This document shows, in pieces, positions 3,013-25,805 of a stretch of DNA of 39,711 nucleotides. Source of the stretch: a virus (lineage: Duplodnaviria; Heunggongvirae; Uroviricota; Caudoviricetes); IMG/VR virus record IMGVR_UViG_2563366967_000006; one strand, given 5' to 3'. The notes beneath the pieces are model-generated. The model saw nothing but the letters and a program-made list of their open reading frames with translations. It was not told the origin of the DNA and searched no databases. Position numbers and translations under genes: made by a program. Each line of letters opens with the position of its first letter. Within the stretch, counting starts at the first letter, position 1.

Positions 3013-3693
3013 TCATCGCCATTGCTCCCCAAATACAAAACCAATTTCAGCCAGTGCCTCGTCCATTTTTTCGATGAACTCCGGCACCATCTCGTCAAAA
3101 CTCGCCATGTACTTTTCATCCCGCTCAACCACGACATAATGCAGTCCTTCACGCTTCATACGCGGGTCATAGTTGGCAAAGTACCAGGCATCTTTTCGTG
3201 TTACCCACATGCTGTACTGCACCTGGGCCATGTAAGCCGACTTTATGGCCTCGAAACCACCGAGCCGGAACTTCATGAAATCCCGGGAGGTAAACGGGCA
3301 TTTCAGCTCAAGGCCATTGCCGTCACTGCATAAACCATCGGGAGAGCAGGCGGTGCGCATACTTTCGTCGCGATAGATGATCGGGGATTCAGTAACATTC
3401 ACGCCGGAAGTGAATTCAAACAGGGTTCTGGCGTCGTTCTCGTACTGTTTTCCCCAGGCCAGCGCCTTAGCATTAACTTCCGGAGCCACACCGGTGCAAA
3501 CCTCAGCCAGCAGGGTGTGGAAGTAGGACATTTTCATGTCAGGCCACTTCTTTCCGGAGCGGGGTTTTGCTATCACGTTGTGAACTTCTGAAGCGGTGAT
3601 GACGCCGAGCCGTAATTTGTGCCACGCATCATCCCCCTGTTCGACAGCTCTCACATCGATCCCGGTACGCTGCAGGATAATGTCCGGTGTCAT
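3013..3693 (-). CDS. exo: Lambda exonuclease (Red-alpha)
   Basis: 226-aa translation ([30 protein letters not shown]...) is near-identical to lambda Exo as I recall it. Confidence 0.95.
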
Positions 3694-4475
3694 GCTGCCA
3701 CCTTCTGCTCTGCGGCTTTCTGTTTCAGGAATCCAAGAGCTTTTACTGCTTCGGCCTGTGTCAGTTCTGACGATGCACGAATGTCGCGGCGAAATATCTG
3801 GGAACAGAGTGGCAATAAGTCGTCATCCCATGTTTTATCCAGGGCGATCAGCAGAGTGTTAATCTCCTGCATGGTTTCATCGTTAACCGGAGTGATGTCG
3901 CGTTCCGGCTGGCGTTCTGCAGTGTATGCAGTATTTTCGACAATGCGCTCGGCTTCATCCTTGTCATAGATACCAGCAAATCCGAAGGCCAGACGGGCAC
4001 ACTGAATCATGGCTTTATGCCGTAACATTCGTTTGGGATGCGACTGCCACGGCCCCGTGATTTCTCTGCCTTCGCGAGTTTTGAATGGTTCGCGGCGGCA
4101 TTCATCCATCCATTCGGTAACGCAGATCGGATGATTACGGTCCTTGCGGTAAATCCGGCATGTACAGGATTCATTGTCCTGTTCAAAGTCCATGCCGTCA
4201 AACTGCTGGTTTTCGTTGATGATGCGGGACCAGCCATCAACGCCCACCACCGGAACGATGCCGTTCTGCTTATCAGGGAAGGCGTAAATTTCTTTCGTCC
4301 ACGGATTAAGGCCGTATTGGTTGGCGACGATCAGCAATGCGATGAACTGCGCATCGCTGGCATCGCCTTTAAATGCTGTCTGGCGAAGAGTGGTGATCAG
4401 TTCCTGTGGGTCGACAGAATCCATGCCGACACGTTCAGCCAGCTTCCCTGCCAGCGTTGCGAGTGCTGTACTCAT
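3690..4475 (-). CDS. bet: Red-beta single-strand annealing protein
   Basis: 261-aa translation ([59 protein letters not shown]...) matches lambda Bet; overlaps exo by 4 nt. Confidence 0.95.
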
Positions 4476-4480
4476 CCGTT

Positions 4481-4777
4481 TTATACCTCTGAATCAATAT
4501 CAACCTGATGGTGAGCAATGGTTTCAACCATGTACCGGATGTGTTCTGCCATGCGCTCCTGAAACTCAACATCGTCATCAAACGCACGGGTAATGGCTTT
4601 TTTGCTGGCCCCGTGGCGTTGCAAATGATCGATGCATAGCGATTCAAACAGGTGCTGGGGCAGGCCTTTTTCCATGTCGTCTGCCAGTTCTGCCTCTTTC
4701 TCTTCACGGGCGATCTGCTGGTAGTGACGCGCCCAGCTTTGAGCCTCAAGACGATCCTGAATGTAATAAGCGTTCAT
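4481..4777 (-). CDS. gam: Gam, host RecBCD nuclease inhibitor
   Basis: 98-aa translation ([21 protein letters not shown]...[10 protein letters not shown]) matches the short form of lambda Gam. Confidence 0.9.
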
Positions 4778-4852
4778 GGCTGAACTCCTGAAAATGGCTG
4801 TGAAAATATCGCCCGCTAAATGCCAGGCTGATTAGGAAAACAGGAAAGGGGA

Positions 4853-5263
4853 TTAGTGATTCAGGCCGTTACCGCGTCCGTCGAGAAAAACTTCCACGAG
4901 CAAATCACGGGTATAAGTGCGCTCGATGCCGCGATGCAGATAAAGCCGTCCGCGTAAATTAGCTGATGCAGTCCAGGTACCATCTTTGTGTTTGACCAGC
5001 ATTCCTGGCATGACCGCACCTCGATTAACGGTCTGCGTTCCGTAATGTTGATGAACCATAAAAACTCCTGCCCGTAAGCTGGGCTGCTGAACATATAGAG
5101 ACTTCTGCGCGTATTCAGGCGGTGGATGGCCGCCGGTTGTCATAACTAAGCCGCCTCGTTGAAGCGACTGAGGTATGAGGTGTTGAGTTGATTTCAGCTG
5201 GTCACACCGACGTTCACACGTCCGTTTCACCCCTCGCACTCCCCGGAGCCTGCTGAAATTCAA
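4853..5263 (-). CDS. Hypothetical early-leftward protein; TTG start at 5263 or ATG start at about 5143 (96 aa)
   Basis: Only ORF between gam and the OL/PL-like operator cluster, where lambda carries kil-cIII-ral-N. The 5263 start is TTG; an in-frame ATG at about 5143 has a GAGG upstream. Arg-rich N-terminal extension. Confidence 0.35.
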   Translation of the reverse strand: MNFSRLRGVRGVKRTCERRCDQLKSTQHLIPQSLQRGGLVMTTGGHPPPEYAQKSLYVQQPSLRAGVFMVHQHYGTQTVNRGAVMPGMLVKHKDGTWTASANLRGRLYLHRGIERTYTRDLLVEVFLDGRGNGLNH

Positions 5264-5490
5264 GCTGCGGATCTAAGCGGTCATCGCAACGGTGAATCAG
5301 GTGGTTGCCGTATCGTTGTGTTGTTGCGATGAACTCATTTAAAACTATAGTTGTTTTACCGTCAACAACAAAAGTTGTTTCATTGGTTGTTTTAGATATA
5401 ACTGGTTGTATTTAGGATGGATTTATTTTGTGACTTGCATCGCATAGCGATAACTGAAGCGGGGGGTATGGTGGTTTTTTGAACGGTGTG
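5264..5490. promoter_or_regulatory. OL/PL-like operator-promoter cluster
   Basis: Several GGTTGT/ACAACC half-sites and inverted repeats (gttgtt...aacaac, aacaacaaaagttgtt, tggttgtt, ctggttgta), the same half-site as in the cI-cro intergenic region. Confidence 0.45.
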
Positions 5491-5499
5491 TGATGAGGG

Positions 5500-5528
5500 G
5501 AGGCAAAAGAAAACCCGGCACGACGGCC
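5500..5528 (-). terminator. Putative intrinsic terminator downstream of the membrane-protein gene
   Basis: Plus strand reads gcaaaagaaaacccggcacgacggccggg; on the minus strand this is a CCCGGC/GCCGGG hairpin followed by TTTTCTTTTG, directly after the stop at 5540. Confidence 0.5.
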
Positions 5529-5539
5529 GGGGAGGGGGG

Positions 5540-6046
5540 TCATTTTAATCTATCAAGGAGTGACTCTCTTTCCTTCTTCTCTGATTCTCTTCGGTTTAAT
5601 AACGCTTTAAACTCTTGAAGCTCAACCATTATTTTATGAACGAATACACTGGTATAGAGAGAAATAAAGAGTAATCCACCTGAAATTTTTAAGACCCTGA
5701 AGAGTAGGGCTTGATCATTTGTGCTTGCTATTAACCCCAAGATTACAAACAAAGTTGAAAATACATAGAAAGCTAATAATAAAACCAATTTCAGTCTCTT
5801 GGATTTGACTATTGGCACTAATCGCCTAACCTCACTAGGGGTTAAAGACGAGTGGTCATTGGCCTCATTTGCCTTAAAAATGGCTTGTATACAATATGAT
5901 AATGGCAATTGCATGAGTCCAACCACAGCCCACGGAGCAGTTAGGACAACACCCGGTGTAATATAGCCCAATGCTGACTTGAACAAAAAGTAACCAGCAA
6001 AATAGAAGACCAACATACCAATAAGGTGGATGATGTTCGATTTCAT
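5540..6046 (-). CDS. Unknown multi-pass membrane protein (168 aa, about 4 hydrophobic segments, charged C-terminal tail), second gene of the cassette in the rexB position
   Basis: Four long hydrophobic stretches followed by a charged tail (RRESEKKERESLLDRLK). Strong RBS (aaaaggaggg) 21 nt after the upstream gene's stop. AT-rich. Confidence 0.8.
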   Translation of the reverse strand: MKSNIIHLIGMLVFYFAGYFLFKSALGYITPGVVLTAPWAVVGLMQLPLSYCIQAIFKANEANDHSSLTPSEVRRLVPIVKSKRLKLVLLLAFYVFSTLFVILGLIASTNDQALLFRVLKISGGLLFISLYTSVFVHKIMVELQEFKALLNRRESEKKERESLLDRLK

Positions 6047-6067
6047 TATCGCCCTCCTTTTGGTAGG

Positions 6068-7090
6068 TTATTTTGCAACCAATTCTCCGGCATCAAGTTT
6101 TGAGAACAGCCACTTATGCATTTTTAAGAATAAATCATTTTCATCAATAATGCCATTGTTATATTCAACGCTAATTTTTCCGGATAATTTTATCTCTTTT
6201 CCCGTTATTTCCCCACCGCCTTGAAGTTTGATGCTAATATCATCCTCATCTAGATGTCGTAGTGAGGTAGCAATACTGTCTATAACAGCTTGACCGCTAT
6301 CATTTGTTTTTCTGAAGTATGTAATCTCGAGGCTTACTTGTAAATTGGCCTCATCTAATGAATCTTTAATGTTTATATCATTTGCCCAGTTATCGCCAAA
6401 AAATGCTTTTAGTAGCGCACCTCCTTTCCCTATTGGGCGGTATTTTATTGTCTTCACCGAACCATTTGAAAAGGAGGGTGTTTGGTTCTCTGAATTTTTA
6501 ACTTCTGAAGTAATGGGTAATCCACCAATTTTTATGCTCTTGGCTGGTGCTTTCTCCATTTTTTTCATCGTTTCTTCGGATGGCTTATCTTGAAGCATTA
6601 ACACAGATTCTTTTTCATCTGTGAATGTATTAATTAGCCAATTCAAATGCGCCTCAAGCTCCCTTGCTCGAAGCGATGTGGATTGAACGATCATGACATG
6701 GTTGTTTAGTACACCAAAATATAAAATTGAATCTACAAACTCTCTTTTTTTGTCACTACGTTTATCTCCATCAATAATTATATCATTAGACGTGATGGAG
6801 TTAATGTCATAAAATTTAACATTATCACTAAGCTCTAATAGAGACTGGCTTTTGTCTTTTTCAAATAAAACCAGTTGCCCAAAAAGTATAGTTTTGTATG
6901 TGTCGCTTTTATTTAAGAAACGATACCCCGAATTTTCATCTGAAGGTGTTATTTTTTCTTGTCTACTAAGTACTTTTTCTGCAACGCCGCCCTCACCTAT
7001 AATACTAAGTAGTATGTTTTGTAATGATGATTTGCTGTGTGGGATTACTGCTTTTTTATAATGAACGACTTTTTGTCTGTTATCTTTCAT
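6068..7090 (-). CDS. Unknown soluble protein (340 aa), first gene of the cassette in the rexA position
   Basis: ATG at 7090; immediately downstream of cI on the same strand. Lys/Asn/Ser-rich and AT-rich; no P-loop or nuclease motif seen by eye. Confidence 0.8.
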   Translation of the reverse strand: MKDNRQKVVHYKKAVIPHSKSSLQNILLSIIGEGGVAEKVLSRQEKITPSDENSGYRFLNKSDTYKTILFGQLVLFEKDKSQSLLELSDNVKFYDINSITSNDIIIDGDKRSDKKREFVDSILYFGVLNNHVMIVQSTSLRARELEAHLNWLINTFTDEKESVLMLQDKPSEETMKKMEKAPAKSIKIGGLPITSEVKNSENQTPSFSNGSVKTIKYRPIGKGGALLKAFFGDNWANDINIKDSLDEANLQVSLEITYFRKTNDSGQAVIDSIATSLRHLDEDDISIKLQGGGEITGKEIKLSGKISVEYNNGIIDENDLFLKMHKWLFSKLDAGELVAK

Positions 7091-7147
7091 TGCTATAGTC
7101 CAACTAGTATTGAATAAATAAACACAGTAAAGACATAAAAATTTCTT

Positions 7148-7177
7148 ATAGCTACCGATAACGTAATCGGTAGCTAT
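7148..7177. repeat. Perfect 12-bp inverted repeat with 6-nt spacer (atagctaccgat-aacgta-atcggtagctat)
   Basis: Read directly from the sequence between the cI stop (7213) and the 340-aa gene start (7090); on the minus strand a short T-run (AAGAAATTTTTATG) follows. Confidence 0.55.
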
Positions 7178-7212
7178 TACAAATCAACCAAAGGTAATTC
7201 TTTACATACTAC

Positions 7213-7902
7213 CTACCCATGCTTCCTGTAGGTCTGCGGCATGCTCCCAATAACTTTCCCGAAGATAAACACCCGGTTCATCTCGTCTTTCTCAATTGGG
7301 TCCCACGGCGAGTAGCTCTTGTTATCAGAGATAACCAGTAGCTTATCCTTCATCATTTGCAGGCGCTTTACATGGGCTGTGTCGTCGTACAGAAACGCAT
7401 AGATACCATCACCGTCGAAAGATTTAACTGTGATATCAACGAACAGCAGATCACCTGGTTCGATCGTTCCTGACATGCTGTCACCACGCACGTTAATGAT
7501 GCGGATATTTTCCGCCTTCCTACCATCGAACATGTGACGAGCATCGTCAAACGAGTACTCAACCGAGCGTAGAACTTCTACAAACTCACGGTTGATGACT
7601 CCCGGCCCAGCACTGACTTCTATATCAAGAACGTCAATCTTAAAGTATTTGGAATGGCTGACAGTTGATAGTATTGGTTGCACTGTACTGTCTGACATAT
7701 TTCCAACGCCAGAAGATAACCATTCTGCGCGCACACCCAAAGCGTTCGCGATCTCCACGATTTTAGTTGTTTGGTTAGCTTTCCCTGTTTCGATTTTCTG
7801 AATAGCAGCTTGGCTAACCCCGACCAAATCCCCAAGCGCCTTTTGTGTAAGGCCTCGCGCTAATCTGGCTTCTTTAAGTCTTTCTGAGAGTGTTGTTTTC
7901 AT
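7213..7902 (-). CDS. cI: CI-type prophage repressor (HTH plus S24/LexA-like peptidase)
   Basis: N-terminal HTH (LTQKALGDLVGVSQAAIQKIETGK) and C-terminal peptidase-like domain with GDSM. The likely start is the internal ATG at 7902 (MKTTLSERL...); the ORF track extends to 7968. Not lambda cI. Confidence 0.85.
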   Translation of the reverse strand: MKTTLSERLKEARLARGLTQKALGDLVGVSQAAIQKIETGKANQTTKIVEIANALGVRAEWLSSGVGNMSDSTVQPILSTVSHSKYFKIDVLDIEVSAGPGVINREFVEVLRSVEYSFDDARHMFDGRKAENIRIINVRGDSMSGTIEPGDLLFVDITVKSFDGDGIYAFLYDDTAHVKRLQMMKDKLLVISDNKSYSPWDPIEKDEMNRVFIFGKVIGSMPQTYRKHG

Positions 7903-8006
7903 AGTCCAAATGTACAACCAAGGTTTTATTCCATCAAACGAAAATGGTTGTTGACTAAAAACAACCATAGTTTTAATCTTGATTCAAATTAACCACGGAG
8001 GTTGTT
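7903..8006. promoter_or_regulatory. OR/PRM/PR-like divergent operator-promoter region
   Basis: Inverted repeat ATGGTTGTT-7 nt-AACAACCAT at 7944-7968 overlapping a TTGACT -35-like hexamer, plus further ACAACCA/GGTTGTT half-sites near 7914-7925 and 7990-8005; RBS ggagg before the cro-like start. Confidence 0.55.
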
Positions 8007-8237
8007 ATGAACCCAGCTATCAAAACAGCGATCAATATCGTTGGTTCACAAAAGAAACTGGGCGCTGCCTGCGAAGTTTCACAGCAGGCCGTCTATAAGT
8101 GGCTTCACAACAAAGCAAAGGTATCCCCTGAACATGTCGGCAGCATTGTTACGGCTACTGGTGGAGTAGTGAAGGCATACCAGATTCGCCCGGATCTTCC
8201 GAAGTTGTTTCCACACACCGAAAAGAACGCAGCTTAA
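8007..8237 (+). CDS. Cro-like HTH regulator
   Basis: 76-aa ORF divergent from cI with an HTH-like stretch (QKKLGAACEVSQQAVYKW). Confidence 0.7.
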   Translation: MNPAIKTAINIVGSQKKLGAACEVSQQAVYKWLHNKAKVSPEHVGSIVTATGGVVKAYQIRPDLPKLFPHTEKNAA

Positions 8238-8306
8238 ATTTCCATTTCACGCTCTTTAACAATAAGCAATCAACTTAACAGTCAATTCAAACTAAAGGAG
8301 TCAATT

Positions 8307-8846
8307 ATGCAACCACTTACATACCAACAGACTAGCGGATTTAGCCCGACTGCGGTGATAAATCGTTCTCAAACAAAACAGGTGCCAGGCCACGAAAAAA
8401 TCCGTGATGCCGTCCGCGCCTGGTCGGCTGAAGATAATCAGGATGTCGTTGCCACACTCATTGTGAATGAGTATCGGGAGCAGGGCGGCGGCGCCATCGA
8501 TTTCCCTGATGATGTCAGCCGTGCACGCCAGAAGCTGTTCCGCTTCCTCGATAACAAATTCGATTCTGAAAAATACCGAAATAACGTGCGTGAACTGACC
8601 CCGGCAATTCTGGCGGTACTACCGCTGGAATATCGCGGTTACCTGGTTGAGCAGGATAGCTTCATGGCTAGGTTGGCTGAAATGGAAAAGGAACTCAGTG
8701 AGGCAAAACAGGCTGTCATTCTCAACGCACCACGCCACCAGAAACTGAAGGAGATGAGTGAAGGTATTGTGTCGATGTTTCGTGTGGACCCGGATCTGGC
8801 TGGTCCATTGATGGCGATGGTTACCACCATGTTGGGGGCAATATGA
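8307..8846 (+). CDS. CII-position early regulatory protein, possibly YdaT-like
   Basis: 179-aa ORF between the cro-like gene and O; the family name is a tentative recollection (motif PAILAVLPLEYRGY). Confidence 0.55.
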   Translation: MQPLTYQQTSGFSPTAVINRSQTKQVPGHEKIRDAVRAWSAEDNQDVVATLIVNEYREQGGGAIDFPDDVSRARQKLFRFLDNKFDSEKYRNNVRELTPAILAVLPLEYRGYLVEQDSFMARLAEMEKELSEAKQAVILNAPRHQKLKEMSEGIVSMFRVDPDLAGPLMAMVTTMLGAI

Positions 8847-8932
8847 CAGGCTCAGAAATGGCGAAAGCCGGTCTGCGGGAACAGAGCCGACTTTCAGGTG
8901 CAAATCGTAACACACTCATTGCGGGAGGAATT

Positions 8933-9862
8933 ATGGCAAACACTGCTGAGATATTCAATTTTCCAGTGCCGGATGTGGCACAAAAGGAGCCGCGCGTGGC
9001 AGATCTCGATGATGGTTATACGCGCATTGCAAATGAGTTGCTGGAAGCTGTGATGCTGGCCGGATTAACACAGCACCAGCTTCTGGTCTTCCTGGCTGTC
9101 ATGCGCAAAACATATGGCTTTAATAAAAAACTGGATTGGGTGAGCAACGAGCAACTTTCCGAGTTGACCGGGATATTGCCGCACAAGTGTTCTGCTGCAA
9201 AAAGTGTTCTGGTAAAGCGTGGGATTTTTATTCAGAGCGGGCGGAATATCGGCATTAATAATGTGGTCAGTGAATGGTCAACATTACCCGAATCAGGTAA
9301 GAAAAATAAAGTTTACCTGAAAGAGGTAAATTTACCTGAATCAGGTAAGAAAAGTTTACCCAAATCAGGTAAAGACGTTTACCCGAATCAGGTAAACACA
9401 AAAGACAAACTAACAAAAGACAATATAAAACCTTTTTCGTCCGAGAATTCTGGCGAATCCTCTGACCAGCCAGAAAACGATCTTCCTGTGGTGAAACCGG
9501 ATGCTGCAATTCAGAGCGGCAGCAAGTGGGGGACAGCAGAAGACCTGACCGCCGCAGAGTGGATGTTTGACATGGTGAAGACCATCGCGCCATCAGCCAG
9601 AAAACCGAATTTTGCAGGGTGGGCCAACGACATCCGCCTGATGCGTGAGCGTGACGGGCGTAACCATCGCGACATGTGCGTTCTGTTCCGCTGGGCCTGC
9701 CAGGACAACTTCTGGTCCGGTAACGTGCTGAGTCCAGCAAAACTCCGCGACAAGTGGACTCAGCTCGAAATTAACCGCAACAAGCAACAGGCTGGTGTGA
9801 CTGCCAGCAAACCAAAACTCGACCTGACAAACACTGACTGGATTTACGGGGTGGAGCTATGA
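8933..9862 (+). CDS. O: Replication initiator protein O
   Basis: N-terminus resembles lambda O (VADLDDGYTRIANELLEA..., RKTYGFNK...); the gene contains the iteron array. Start taken at ATG 8933 with RBS gggagg; the track ORF begins at 8843. Confidence 0.85.
   Translation: MANTAEIFNFPVPDVAQKEPRVADLDDGYTRIANELLEAVMLAGLTQHQLLVFLAVMRKTYGFNKKLDWVSNEQLSELTGILPHKCSAAKSVLVKRGIFIQSGRNIGINNVVSEWSTLPESGKKNKVYLKEVNLPESGKKSLPKSGKDVYPNQVNTKDKLTKDNIKPFSSENSGESSDQPENDLPVVKPDAAIQSGSKWGTAEDLTAAEWMFDMVKTIAPSARKPNFAGWANDIRLMRERDGRNHRDMCVLFRWACQDNFWSGNVLSPAKLRDKWTQLEINRNKQQAGVTASKPKLDLTNTDWIYGVEL
9284..9397 (+). repeat. Origin iterons (five ~19-bp direct repeats, TTTACCYGAATCAGGTAAR) followed by an A-rich tract
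   Basis: Read directly: ttacccgaatcaggtaag, tttacctgaaagaggtaaa, tttacctgaatcaggtaag, tttacccaaatcaggtaaa, tttacccgaatcaggtaaa, then cacaaaagacaaactaacaaaagacaatataaaa. Confidence 0.8.
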
Positions 9863-10572
9863 AAAATATTGCCGCGCAGATGATTAACTTTGACCGTGAG
9901 CAGATGCGTCGAATCGCCAACAACATGCCGGAACAATACGACGAAAAGCCGCAGGTGCAGCAGGTGGCGCAGATCATCAACGGTGTGTTCAGCCAGCTGC
10001 TTGCGACATTTCCGGCAAGCCTCGCGAACCGCGACCAGAACGAGCTGAACGAAATCCGCCGTCAGTGGGTTATGGCTTTCCGTGAAAATGGAATTACCAC
10101 TATGGAGCAGGTTAACGCCGGAATGCGCGTGGCCCGCCGACAGGAGCGACCATTCCTGCCGTCGCCCGGCCAGTTCGTAGCGTGGTGTAAGCAGAGTGGC
10201 GGGGCGTTAGGTATCACTGTTGACCAAGTCATAACCGAATACTGGGATTGGCGTAATCGTTCCTTCGAATTCACTTCCAGCGAGCATTTCCCGTGGTCAC
10301 AGCCTGTCATGTACCACATCTGCGTCGAACTGCGCCACCGCAGCACAGAGCGCCAGTTAACGCATGGTGAGCTGGCGCGTGAAGCCGGCGATCTGCTGGA
10401 CATGTGGGAGAGGCGCGTCACCGAGGGCAAACCAGTACCGCCTGTGCGCCGGGCGATTGCAGCACCGGCTGCCGAGCATGGCCCGACGCCAATCCAGCTG
10501 CTTCAGGCGAAGTACAACCGCAACAAGTCGAACGGGATGGTGCGAAGTGGTAAAGAAGATAATAAAGAATAA
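9859..10572 (+). CDS. P: Replication protein P (DnaB helicase loader), mosaic
   Basis: N-terminal ~110 aa nearly identical to lambda P (MKNIAAQMINFDREQMRRIANNMPEQYDEKPQVQQVAQIINGVFSQLL...); the C-terminal half differs from lambda P as I recall it. Confidence 0.85.
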   Translation: MKNIAAQMINFDREQMRRIANNMPEQYDEKPQVQQVAQIINGVFSQLLATFPASLANRDQNELNEIRRQWVMAFRENGITTMEQVNAGMRVARRQERPFLPSPGQFVAWCKQSGGALGITVDQVITEYWDWRNRSFEFTSSEHFPWSQPVMYHICVELRHRSTERQLTHGELAREAGDLLDMWERRVTEGKPVPPVRRAIAAPAAEHGPTPIQLLQAKYNRNKSNGMVRSGKEDNKE

Positions 10573-10650
10573 TATTTAGGGTTATAGGTCTTAGCCCATT
10601 TTAAATGGAAGGCAGACATGCAGCCATGCATACTTCGCATGGCAACATAA

Positions 10651-11079
10651 TTATTTAGACAAACTATCTAATTTTTGCGTCGCTTTTTGTGTTAGGTCGC
10701 TGTAACTGATAAACCCTACGTTAGCACCTACAATTAACACTAAGAACACTAAGCTGCATATGGATAGAGTGGCAGATTTATGCTTATGGAAAACAAAATA
10801 TGCTACTATTGCACTTAATATGAAGGAAATGAATAGAAATATAGATGTTGATGTTTTTAGATATTTTTCAGGAAATAATGGGTGAGCAATAATGTATACA
10901 AGATTAAGTAGTATATAAATTGCTACCGGAATGAAAATCATGCTCCAGTGTGTATCTTTTTTGGGAGGGATTGGCTGCAAATAATCAGACACCGTTTTTC
11001 CATCAGTTTCAAGAAGAATTACTAGATCTCTTACTTCACCACTGACTTGAGTGCCATCCTTAGTAGTAATGTTAATCAT
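10651..11079 (-). CDS. Unknown membrane protein (~142 aa, soluble N-terminal region plus about 3 hydrophobic segments)
   Basis: Start taken at the internal ATG 11079 (MINITTKDG...), which overlaps the upstream stop as ATGA, with a GGAGGG RBS. The track ORF extends to 11136. AT-rich. Confidence 0.6.
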   Translation of the reverse strand: MINITTKDGTQVSGEVRDLVILLETDGKTVSDYLQPIPPKKDTHWSMIFIPVAIYILLNLVYIIAHPLFPEKYLKTSTSIFLFISFILSAIVAYFVFHKHKSATLSICSLVFLVLIVGANVGFISYSDLTQKATQKLDSLSK

Positions 11080-11453
11080 TTTTTCCCTCCAAATACGATT
11101 CCCTCTACGTCTTTGGAAGCTTTTTGTGATGACCACTCCTCTGAATCAGGTGATTTAATTAAAAATATTGTATCTCCATCAAAAATCGTATTTGTTCCGT
11201 AAAAATTTACATTTGATAGATCACCACCAAAAACCCTCTGCCCACTCGAGGTAATTGCCTCACCTAATTTAGTAAAATTACCTGCAATAGATGATTTTCT
11301 TTTTCCACTTCTATTCAAAGTGGCTTTAATTACACCACCACCATCCTTAGAGTTAAATAATTGAATGTCCACTCCAGCAGTTGGTTGTATATATTTTGAA
11401 AGCTCTTTCTTGAACTTGTTAATATATTTATCTTTGTTTTCTTTGTTGGTCAT
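11076..11453 (-). CDS. Unknown small soluble protein (125 aa), first gene of the ren-position cassette
   Basis: ORF antisense to the early rightward operon; Gly/Ser/Lys-rich; no motif recognised. AT-rich. Confidence 0.6.
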   Translation of the reverse strand: MTNKENKDKYINKFKKELSKYIQPTAGVDIQLFNSKDGGGVIKATLNRSGKRKSSIAGNFTKLGEAITSSGQRVFGGDLSNVNFYGTNTIFDGDTIFLIKSPDSEEWSSQKASKDVEGIVFGGKK

Positions 11454-11720
11454 TGGTTAGATCCATAGTTCTGGCTGTGATTAGGTGAAAGTATACAAGG
11501 TTTTTAAAGCGAAGATCACTGTTTTGGCTTCAAGATAGTTTTGATTTATCGTAATCAATCCGCCATAATCCTCTCATCGGAGCCTGAACAACTCCGGTGA
11601 CTTCTGCGCATTTAAGGGGACTTAAATGCGACCACAATCTGAACTCATCACCTTGTCACAGATGCAGAAATGCACCTGCGATGTCTTGCATCCAGCGTTT
11701 GATCTCTGCGGAGGTGAAGC

Positions 11721-12176
11721 GTGAACCTCCCACAAGATGGCATCAAATTACATCGCGGTAACTTCACCGCTGTCGGTCAGCAGATCCAGACTTATCTGGA
11801 AGACGGCAAATGCTTTCGCATGGTGCTTAAACCGTGGCGCGAGAGACGCAGTCTTTCCCAGAATGCACTCAGCCACATGTGGTACAGCGAAATCAGTGAA
11901 TACCTCATCAGCAGGGGTAAAACGTTCGCCACTCCAGCTTGGGTAAAAGATGCTCTCAAACACACATATCTCGGTTATGAAACCAAAGACCTGGTTGATG
12001 TCGTAACCGGTGATATCACCACTATCCAGTCGTTACGCCATACCTCCGATCTTGATACCGGAGAGATGTATGTCTTCCTGTGTAAGGTTGAAGCCTGGGC
12101 GGTGAATATTGGCTGCCACCTGACTATTCCGCAGAGCTGCGAGTTCCAGCTGCTCCGCGACAAGCAAGAGGCGTAA
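11721..12176 (+). CDS. ybcN: NinB/YbcN-family protein
   Basis: 151-aa translation matches my recollection of DLP12 YbcN ([15 protein letters not shown]...[20 protein letters not shown]...). Confidence 0.75.

Positions 12177-19253: not shown

Positions 19254-25805
<6,552 letters not shown>

Follow-up and report, generated by a model that had tools for sequence, protein, structure and literature searches.

A probable lambda-type lysis/lysogeny switch with 434-type 14-bp operators and an uncharacterised immunity specificity in a lambdoid prophage

Genes and half-sites of the immunity region

The subject of this analysis is the immunity region (positions 5264 to 8006) of the Caudoviricetes record IMGVR_UViG_2563366967_000006, a stretch of 39,711 nucleotides, hereafter the window, which holds the early region of a lambdoid prophage. 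On its left lie the leftward genes exo (3013-3693), bet (3690-4475), gam (4481-4777), and kil (4853-5059; 68 aa). An intergenic cluster of GTTGT-type half-sites, referred to here as the left cluster, stands between these genes and a unit on the minus strand in which the cI repressor gene (7213-7902; 229 aa) is followed by two cargo genes, for a 340-aa protein (6068-7090) and a 168-aa membrane protein (5540-6046), and then by a terminator-like hairpin with a T run (5514-5531). A 104-bp spacer divides cI from the divergent cro gene (8007-8237, plus strand; 76 aa), beyond which come a gene for a CII-like regulator (8307-8846, plus strand), O, and P. The repressor consists of a 434-like HTH_3 domain and a Peptidase_S24 domain (Pfam; E = 1e-18), in line with its first description as a non-lambda S24-peptidase repressor, its DNA-binding domain not being of the lambda cI type. 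Cro belongs to the YdaS family (YdaS_toxin, E = 4e-17) and the CII-like regulator to the YdaT family (YdaT_toxin, E = 1.5e-29; a CII-like activator in PHROGs), and PHROGs agrees with Pfam on all three genes. An extended 136-aa open reading frame (4853-5263) was considered as an N-like protein or a long Kil and rejected, since PGAP calls only the 68-aa Kil; a phi80-like terminator hairpin inside the extension also counts against it.

The first-pass annotation of this DNA had pointed to GGTTGT/ACAACC half-sites on both sides of the cargo as operators of the repressor. Across the whole window the exact GGTTGT hexamer is not enriched (25 copies found, 19.9 expected). It is clustered, with four copies in 7914-8005 and two in the left cluster (5385 and 5404). 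When GTTGT/ACAAC density was scored over 160-bp segments of the 39.7 kb, these same two regions turned out to be the densest (seven copies in 5315-5474 and five in 7892-8051, followed by three in the next), half-sites being commoner there than elsewhere. Motif discovery over both intergenic blocks (5330-5420 plus 7903-8006), which the annotation had proposed, was carried out as an unbiased k-mer test. ACAAC/GTTGT ranked first among the 5-mers (nine found versus 0.35 expected; p ~2e-10) and ACAACCA/TGGTTGT among the 7-mers (five copies in 195 bp versus five in the other 39.5 kb). The clustering of half-sites is thus real and not the product of chance. The left cluster does carry the same half-sites as the cI-cro spacer, as had been claimed, although its leftmost GTTGT copies (5315 and 5320) fall outside the specific site set because their sequence is also kept in phages of different immunity. 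Within the spacer, a perfect 9-7-9 inverted repeat (ATGGTTGTT/AACAACCAT; arms at 7944-7952 and 7960-7968) spans a TTGACT hexamer (7951-7956), just as annotated. The two further half-site pairs reported there were not recovered; instead, the spacer holds two single strong half-sites, at 7914-7919 and 8000-8005, with weaker partners.

Predicted operator sites and the modules that travel with them

The repressor of phage 434 recognizes 14-bp sites with outward-placed ACAA half-sites. An operator unit of this type, ACAAC-N4-GTTKT (K being G or T), is more likely than the 9-7-9 palindrome. The N4 core of the 14-mers is invariant, but the distance between the palindrome arms is 7 bp in the right operator (OR) and 8 bp in the left operator (OL) of the three phages compared. 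Taking the sites as 14-mers, the palindrome would therefore be made up of the right half of OR2 and the left half of OR1, flanking the -35 hexamer of the rightward promoter (PR). A scan for the pattern ACAACNNNNGTTKT returned six matches versus 0.20 expected. These represent five different sites, the symmetric OL2 having been counted once on each strand; OL1, OL2, OR3, and OR1 fall within the two putative operator regions.

Three 14-mers on the plus strand would make up OR in the cI-cro spacer: OR3 (ACAACCAAGGTTTT; 7914-7927) and OR1 (ACAACCATAGTTTT; 7961-7974), both supported by the pattern match and by conservation, and OR2 (ACGAAAATGGTTGT; 7938-7951), which has one strong half and was recognized by conservation. 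Their centres are 24 and 23 bp apart. On the left, OL1 (ACAACTATAGTTTT; 5341-5354, minus strand) and OL2 (ACAACAAAAGTTGT; 5365-5378), the latter being the sole fully symmetric site, both match the pattern, are kept in five phages, and again lie 24 bp apart. Two lone strong half-sites TGGTTGT (5384-5390 and 5403-5409, plus strand) are candidates for OL3, and a AAAACAACCA half-site occurs upstream of OL2 in five of five phages, at a variable distance. No regular OL3 was found at 24 bp from OL2, the sequence at 5389-5402 not fitting the 14-mer. A possible fourth site in the spacer (ACCACGGAGGTTGT; 7992-8005, plus strand) overlaps the cro Shine-Dalgarno sequence. It occupies the same position in four phages with the recognition helix SQAAIQK, in which the 16 bp upstream diverge; this stretch could be a fourth operator, or its conservation could merely reflect the cro ribosome-binding site.

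The putative promoters overlap these sites, on the right as well as on the left. PR (7951-7979, plus strand) would comprise a -35 hexamer TTGACT (7951-7956), a 17-bp spacer, and a -10 hexamer TAATCT (7974-7979), with a start near 7986. The promoter for repressor maintenance (PRM; 7909-7937, minus strand) would combine TTGATG (7932-7937) and TACATT (7909-7914), and the leftward promoter (PL; 5337-5365, minus strand) TTGACG (5360-5365) and TTAAAT (5337-5342), each with a 17-bp spacer. PL would start near 5330, and an 18-bp spacer with TAAATG as the -10 hexamer is an alternative. In five phages, the TTG of every -35 and the TA...T of every -10 are kept, the TTG and TAnnTT of PRM being invariant and the TAnnnT of PR conserved. 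OR3 covers the spacer and -10 of the predicted PRM, and OR2 adjoins its -35. A PRM start on the A of the cI ATG (7902) would give a leaderless cI mRNA.

Related phages have exchanged these elements naturally. The same switch was found in six phage records (PhiR5_1, PhiR47_2, PhiR34_1, PhiR26_1, IdasGreatGrand, and Turner), and the cargo was inspected in the first five of these. Perceval combines the cargo of the window with another switch. In Perceval and PhiR30_1, the C-terminal two-thirds of cI is 90-96% identical to that of the window, and the cI N-terminus, OR, and cro are wholly divergent. Alignment of the left intergenic region showed both phages to be near-identical to the window save for an 89-bp block (5330-5418), where they carry the GCTATTG-type motif of their own OR in place of the GTTGTT sites. 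Immunity types exchange this putative OL/PL block whole. Because only 5330-5418 changes together with the cI N-terminus, OR, and cro, the left block travels with the cI DNA-binding domain and not with the cargo. One end of the block falls approximately at the predicted PL start (near 5330), and the transcribed leader beyond it is common to both immunity types. In cI, the recombination junction of the immunity types lies at about codons 45-50 (~7755-7770), inside the DNA-binding domain and after helix 3. Heteroimmune phages exchange only helices 1-3, along with OR and cro, and have everything from helices 4-5 through the linker to the S24 domain in common. Moreover, a 45-bp stretch of OR comprising PR, OR1, and OR2 aligns with the left block read on the opposite strand (ATCAAACGAAAATGGTTGTTGAC-TAAAAACAACCATAGTTTTAA versus ATGAAACAACTTTTGTTGTTGACGGTAAAACAACTATAGTTTTAA), a mirror arrangement that has the orientation expected of a leftward PL.

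Conservation across genera outlined the same sites. The comparison comprised the window and the phages ST101-KPC2phi6.1 (Klebsiella), PSTCR7lys (Providencia), UPF_BP1 (Salmonella), and phiEt88 (Erwinia). The first three have cI N-termini with 54-65% identity to that of the window and keep the recognition helix SQAAIQK; that of phiEt88 is the near-identical SQANIQK. All four have 14-mers at 15-28, 39-52, and 62-75 from the cI start (±1-2 bp), and in five of five phages OL1 and OL2 are 24 bp apart with divergent intervening sequence. Invariant columns concentrate in the half-sites, both in OR (24 of 30 half-site columns versus 3 of 46 others) and in OL (19 of 20 versus 13 of 77). Phages of other specificities share this architecture: in HK639, perfect copies of ATAAC-N4-GTTAT occur three times in OR, at distances of 25 and 24 bp, and OL contributes three more sites, PA28 has three 14-mer sites in OR, and the sites of Perceval read ATA(G/C)N6(G/C)TAT and are 25 bp apart. 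The OL-cargo-cI-OR layout first proposed by likeness to lambda is thereby backed by comparative evidence of three kinds, namely, the module swap, the mirror image, and the cross-genus footprint.

The recognition helices vary in step with the half-sites. Among proteins of solved structure, the cI N-terminus is closest to the 434 repressor and 434 Cro, with a gapless alignment (E ~1e-9) that equates Q31, A32, and K36 with Q28, Q29, and Q33, the base-contacting positions of the 434 repressor. Only Q28 is kept among them, and the helix reads QAAIQK versus QQSIEQ in 434. In the window and in the Klebsiella, Providencia, and Salmonella phages, cI SQAAIQK goes with Cro SQQAVYK or SQAAVQK and with ACAAC half-sites; in PA28 and HK639, cI SQPAIQK goes with Cro SQPAVHK and ATAAC; and in Perceval, cI AQPTIWR goes with Cro AQPTVWR and ATA(G/C)(C/G). 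The Cro recognition helix thus co-varies with helix 3 of cI. That residue 32 would track base 2 of the operator and residue 36 base 4 is what the docking geometry of 434 leads one to expect. As the first-pass annotation had anticipated, the specificity is predicted to differ from that of lambda. The C-terminal part of cI has the motifs of self-cleavage (the A-G in SAGPG, the Ser in GDSM, and the Lys in VKRL), and cleavage is predicted.

The cargo slot and the leftward leader

Between the cI stop codon and the terminator, relatives carry seven different contents: genes annotated HipA/HipD (PhiR5_1), the ASCH-domain pair GevT/GevA (PhiR47_2 and IdasGreatGrand), a lipoprotein gene (PhiR26_1), two hypothetical genes, authentic RexA/RexB (the Klebsiella phage), the RexA-like pair of the window, or nothing, as in PhiR34_1, where no gene separates cI from the left cluster. 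This slot is a cargo hotspot, and the distance from OL to OR therefore ranges from ~1 kb to ~2.6 kb. The hairpin at 5514-5531 (minus strand), the shared end of the cI-cargo unit, is kept in eight of eight phages irrespective of cargo. The cassette of the window is inside the OL-OR interval, as first suggested; since it lies on the same strand as cI and shares this terminator, it is most likely expressed with cI in lysogens, co-transcribed as lambda rexAB is, and is probably not repressed by cI. A perfect hairpin with a ~12-bp stem (ATAGCTACCGAT...ATCGGTAGCTAT; 7153-7175) stands between the cI stop and the start of the cargo. It is part of the cargo module, is found otherwise only in Perceval, and might serve for attenuation or as a regulatory site peculiar to the cassette.

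Neither cargo protein has a match in Pfam or PADLOC. An AlphaFold (AF2) model of the 340-aa protein was built with 45 homologues (predicted local distance difference test [pLDDT] score, 72; predicted template modelling [pTM] score, 0.68), and RexA was the sole significant Foldseek match to it (E = 4.5e-4). The 168-aa protein, in the position of RexB, has three hydrophobic segments in its hydropathy profile, and its orthologues have four, as in RexB. As modelled, the cassette is a structural relative of lambda RexA together with a small membrane protein. The two genes are always paired. They also occur elsewhere, directly after an S24 repressor in a Pseudomonas prophage and between Q and mom in Serratia.

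The predicted PL leader (5060-5330, minus strand; ~270 nt) is without a credible open reading frame, and no N gene precedes kil. A 10-bp stem (5281-5290/5323-5332) follows directly on the predicted start, and a hairpin at ~5118-5178 is homologous to features annotated as terminators in phi80 and HK639. A put antiterminator RNA was considered and rejected, the leader having no resemblance to the putL-like element of HK639 or to the PL leader of HK022. Its predicted folding is no more stable than that of shuffled sequence (z = -0.7), and an Rfam scan of 4000-12000 (E <= 1) gave only a chance rliD match. With neither N nor a put RNA in the leader, terminator read-through may use an undescribed mechanism.

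The binding site published for YdaT of CP-933P (TTGATT-N6-AATCAA) has no good match between cro and ydaT (8238-8306), the expected position of the promoter for repressor establishment (PRE), and its consensus is not enriched in the window (five found versus 2.1 expected). The sole perfect match, TTGATTTATCGTAATCAA at 11541-11558, lies far from that position, in a divergent intergenic region by two leftward genes (10651-11453). This YdaT ortholog may have a different specificity.

Interpretation, rival explanations, and known systems

We interpret the locus, with a probability of roughly 80%, as a lysis/lysogeny switch of the lambda type whose immunity specificity is uncharacterised and whose operators are 434-type 14-mers. 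By analogy with lambda and 434, cI dimers would bind the predicted ACAAC-N4-GTT(G/T)T sites, and in the lysogen, repressor at OR1/OR2 and OL1/OL2 would shut off PR and PL. From OR2, adjoining the PRM -35, the repressor could activate PRM, and OR3, lying over PRM, would provide negative autoregulation. Cro, a YdaS-family protein, is predicted to recognize these sites as well, and RecA-stimulated self-cleavage would inactivate the repressor; PL would drive kil, gam, bet, and exo.

Several observations weigh against this interpretation. One pattern match strays outside both regions (at 20664), OR2 has only one good half-site, and the lone half-sites at 5384-5409, the candidates for OL3, do not fit the 14-mer. 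A simple sigma-70 consensus scan flags none of PR, PRM, and PL, so that the promoter calls rest on conservation and position, and the PL -10 hexamer departs from the consensus whichever spacer is taken, either at position 2 (no A) or at position 6 (no T). On the side of the cargo, the 340-aa protein was modelled by AF2 with no more than moderate confidence (pLDDT, 72), hhalign comparison of its profile with that of RexA yielded a probability of 0.2% and no sequence signal, and the 12-bp-stem palindrome at 7153-7175 could attenuate read-through from cI into the cargo. Our searches brought to light neither data on binding, footprints, or transcripts for immunity of this type nor a published operator map for this specificity, and the literature on Perceval/Bievrevirus, the PhiR phages, GevT/GevA, and HipD yielded no paper on it.

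Three other explanations were weighed. The operator unit might be the 25-bp palindrome GGTTGTT-N7-AACAACC, spanned by one dimer or tetramer, with the weak outer halves irrelevant. The palindrome is perfect in the window, the Providencia phage has a perfect 8-7-8 version of it, and the PL -35, too, lies between this inverted pair. We nonetheless regard this unit as improbable: its arm spacing varies between OR and OL where the N4 of the 14-mers does not, and its arm centres are ~14-15 bp apart, which is ill-suited to a 434-type dimer, judging by the 434 operators. Besides, the outer halves ACGAA and GTTTT are also conserved; OR3 and the sites of HK639 and PA28 are stand-alone 14-mers; and the Klebsiella phage retains the 14-mers although its palindrome arms are degraded.

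That the left cluster is not a repressor operator, and is instead a repeat array serving a different factor (Cro alone, a nucleoid protein, or a regulator linked to the cargo) or simply a chance AT-rich repeat, is highly improbable. It has only two exact GGTTGT copies, its lone half-sites are direct repeats with irregular spacing, and PL escapes the promoter scan, all of which would suit such a view. Yet the left block co-varies with the cI helix-turn-helix and the OR type and not with the cargo, mirrors PR/OR1/OR2 over 45 bp, and is kept in phages with entirely different cargo or none, and the half-site enrichment (p of the order of 1e-10) argues against a chance repeat. That the switch simply has the immunity specificity of phage 434 is scarcely credible. 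The 434-like DNA-binding domain and the exact fit of OL2 to ACAA-N6-TTGT speak for it; nevertheless, OL2 is alone in this fit, the remaining four of the five sites ending in TTTT or GGTTGT contexts and not in TTGT, two of the three base-contacting positions differ (Q29 -> A32 and Q33 -> K36), and the phage searches showed no DNA similarity to a 434 record.

Beyond the lambda-type switch itself, a more far-reaching joint reading is possible, if somewhat unlikely as a whole: a two-position specificity code in helix 3 of a very large 434-related family, a cassette that is a divergent RexAB driven from PRM, and an undescribed mechanism of read-through in the PL leader. In such a code, A at residue 2 of helix 3 may specify C at operator base 2, and P may specify T; K at residue 6 may specify A at base 4, and R may specify G. 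Were it true, the immunity group of a prophage could be read straight from its sequence.

The cI N-terminus/OR/cro segment was present in 1524 of 5426 complete Escherichia coli genomes (~28%), O157:H7 included, and the OL block (5330-5418) in 1354, while the cargo cassette was rare (43 genomes). Some genomes hold up to four copies of this cI/OR/cro type. Counted by place in the collection, OR outnumbers OL (1728 versus 1359, ~370 more), an excess that suggests homoimmune co-resident prophages and remnants without OL. The defined sites, together with the way in which helix 3 and the half-sites vary in step, supply testable rules for superinfection immunity and for cross-repression among co-resident prophages, of practical value for a specificity that ~28% of complete E. 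coli genomes carry, some in several copies. That such cassettes are probably driven from PRM would also indicate when they are expressed.

Parts of this locus recall several known systems. CP-933P and phi80 likewise have a YdaS-type Cro analogue followed by a YdaT-type CII analogue. CP-933P, from E. coli O157:H7, has toxin-antitoxin cargo downstream of the repressor in the same operon, a separate PL/OL, a paaR2 mRNA shown to be leaderless, and operators that are 18-bp palindromes with GTTTAGTAA (PMC8630535). It differs from the window in its repressor, which is PaaR2 and not a putatively cleavable S24 cI, and in its operator consensus. A 933W type was discarded, the 933W literature describing a different repressor and a 15-bp site. 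Like RexAB systems, the cassette consists of two genes downstream of a cI-like repressor, for a soluble protein whose best structural match is RexA and a predicted small multi-pass membrane protein; unlike them, it has no detectable sequence similarity to RexA/RexB and no PADLOC match. RexABpp of Pseudomonas putida, found by the same approach, is a published precedent (PMC12894663).

The switch shares with 434 the site length, the outward ACAA half-sites, and a similar recognition helix in cI and Cro. It departs from 434 in its preferred half-site, ACAAC(C), often partnered by GTTTT, and is predicted to be heteroimmune. HK639, PA28, and Perceval have homologous cI and Cro, the 14-mer architecture, and a 24- to 25-bp periodicity, and differ in helix 3 and the half-site. 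The likeness to lambda extends to the gene order and strands (OL/PL-rexB-rexA-cI-PRM/OR/PR-cro), a predicted OR of three sites whose centres are 23-24 bp apart, one of them adjoining the PRM -35, a probable leaderless cI, a second operator set at a leftward PL ~2.6 kb away, and an S24 repressor with the motifs of self-cleavage. Downstream of cI, as in lambda, come a gene for a protein of predicted RexA fold and one for a small putative membrane protein, with a terminator at the end. Unlike lambda, which has 17-bp sites, the window has 434-like sites of 14 bp, an HTH_3 DNA-binding domain, a YdaS-family Cro, a YdaT-family CII analogue, no N gene between PL and kil, and only two clear OL sites. 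Collectively, the architecture is that of a textbook lambda switch, with nothing categorically new in it; the system is of an ordinary kind and a new, very widespread member of that kind.

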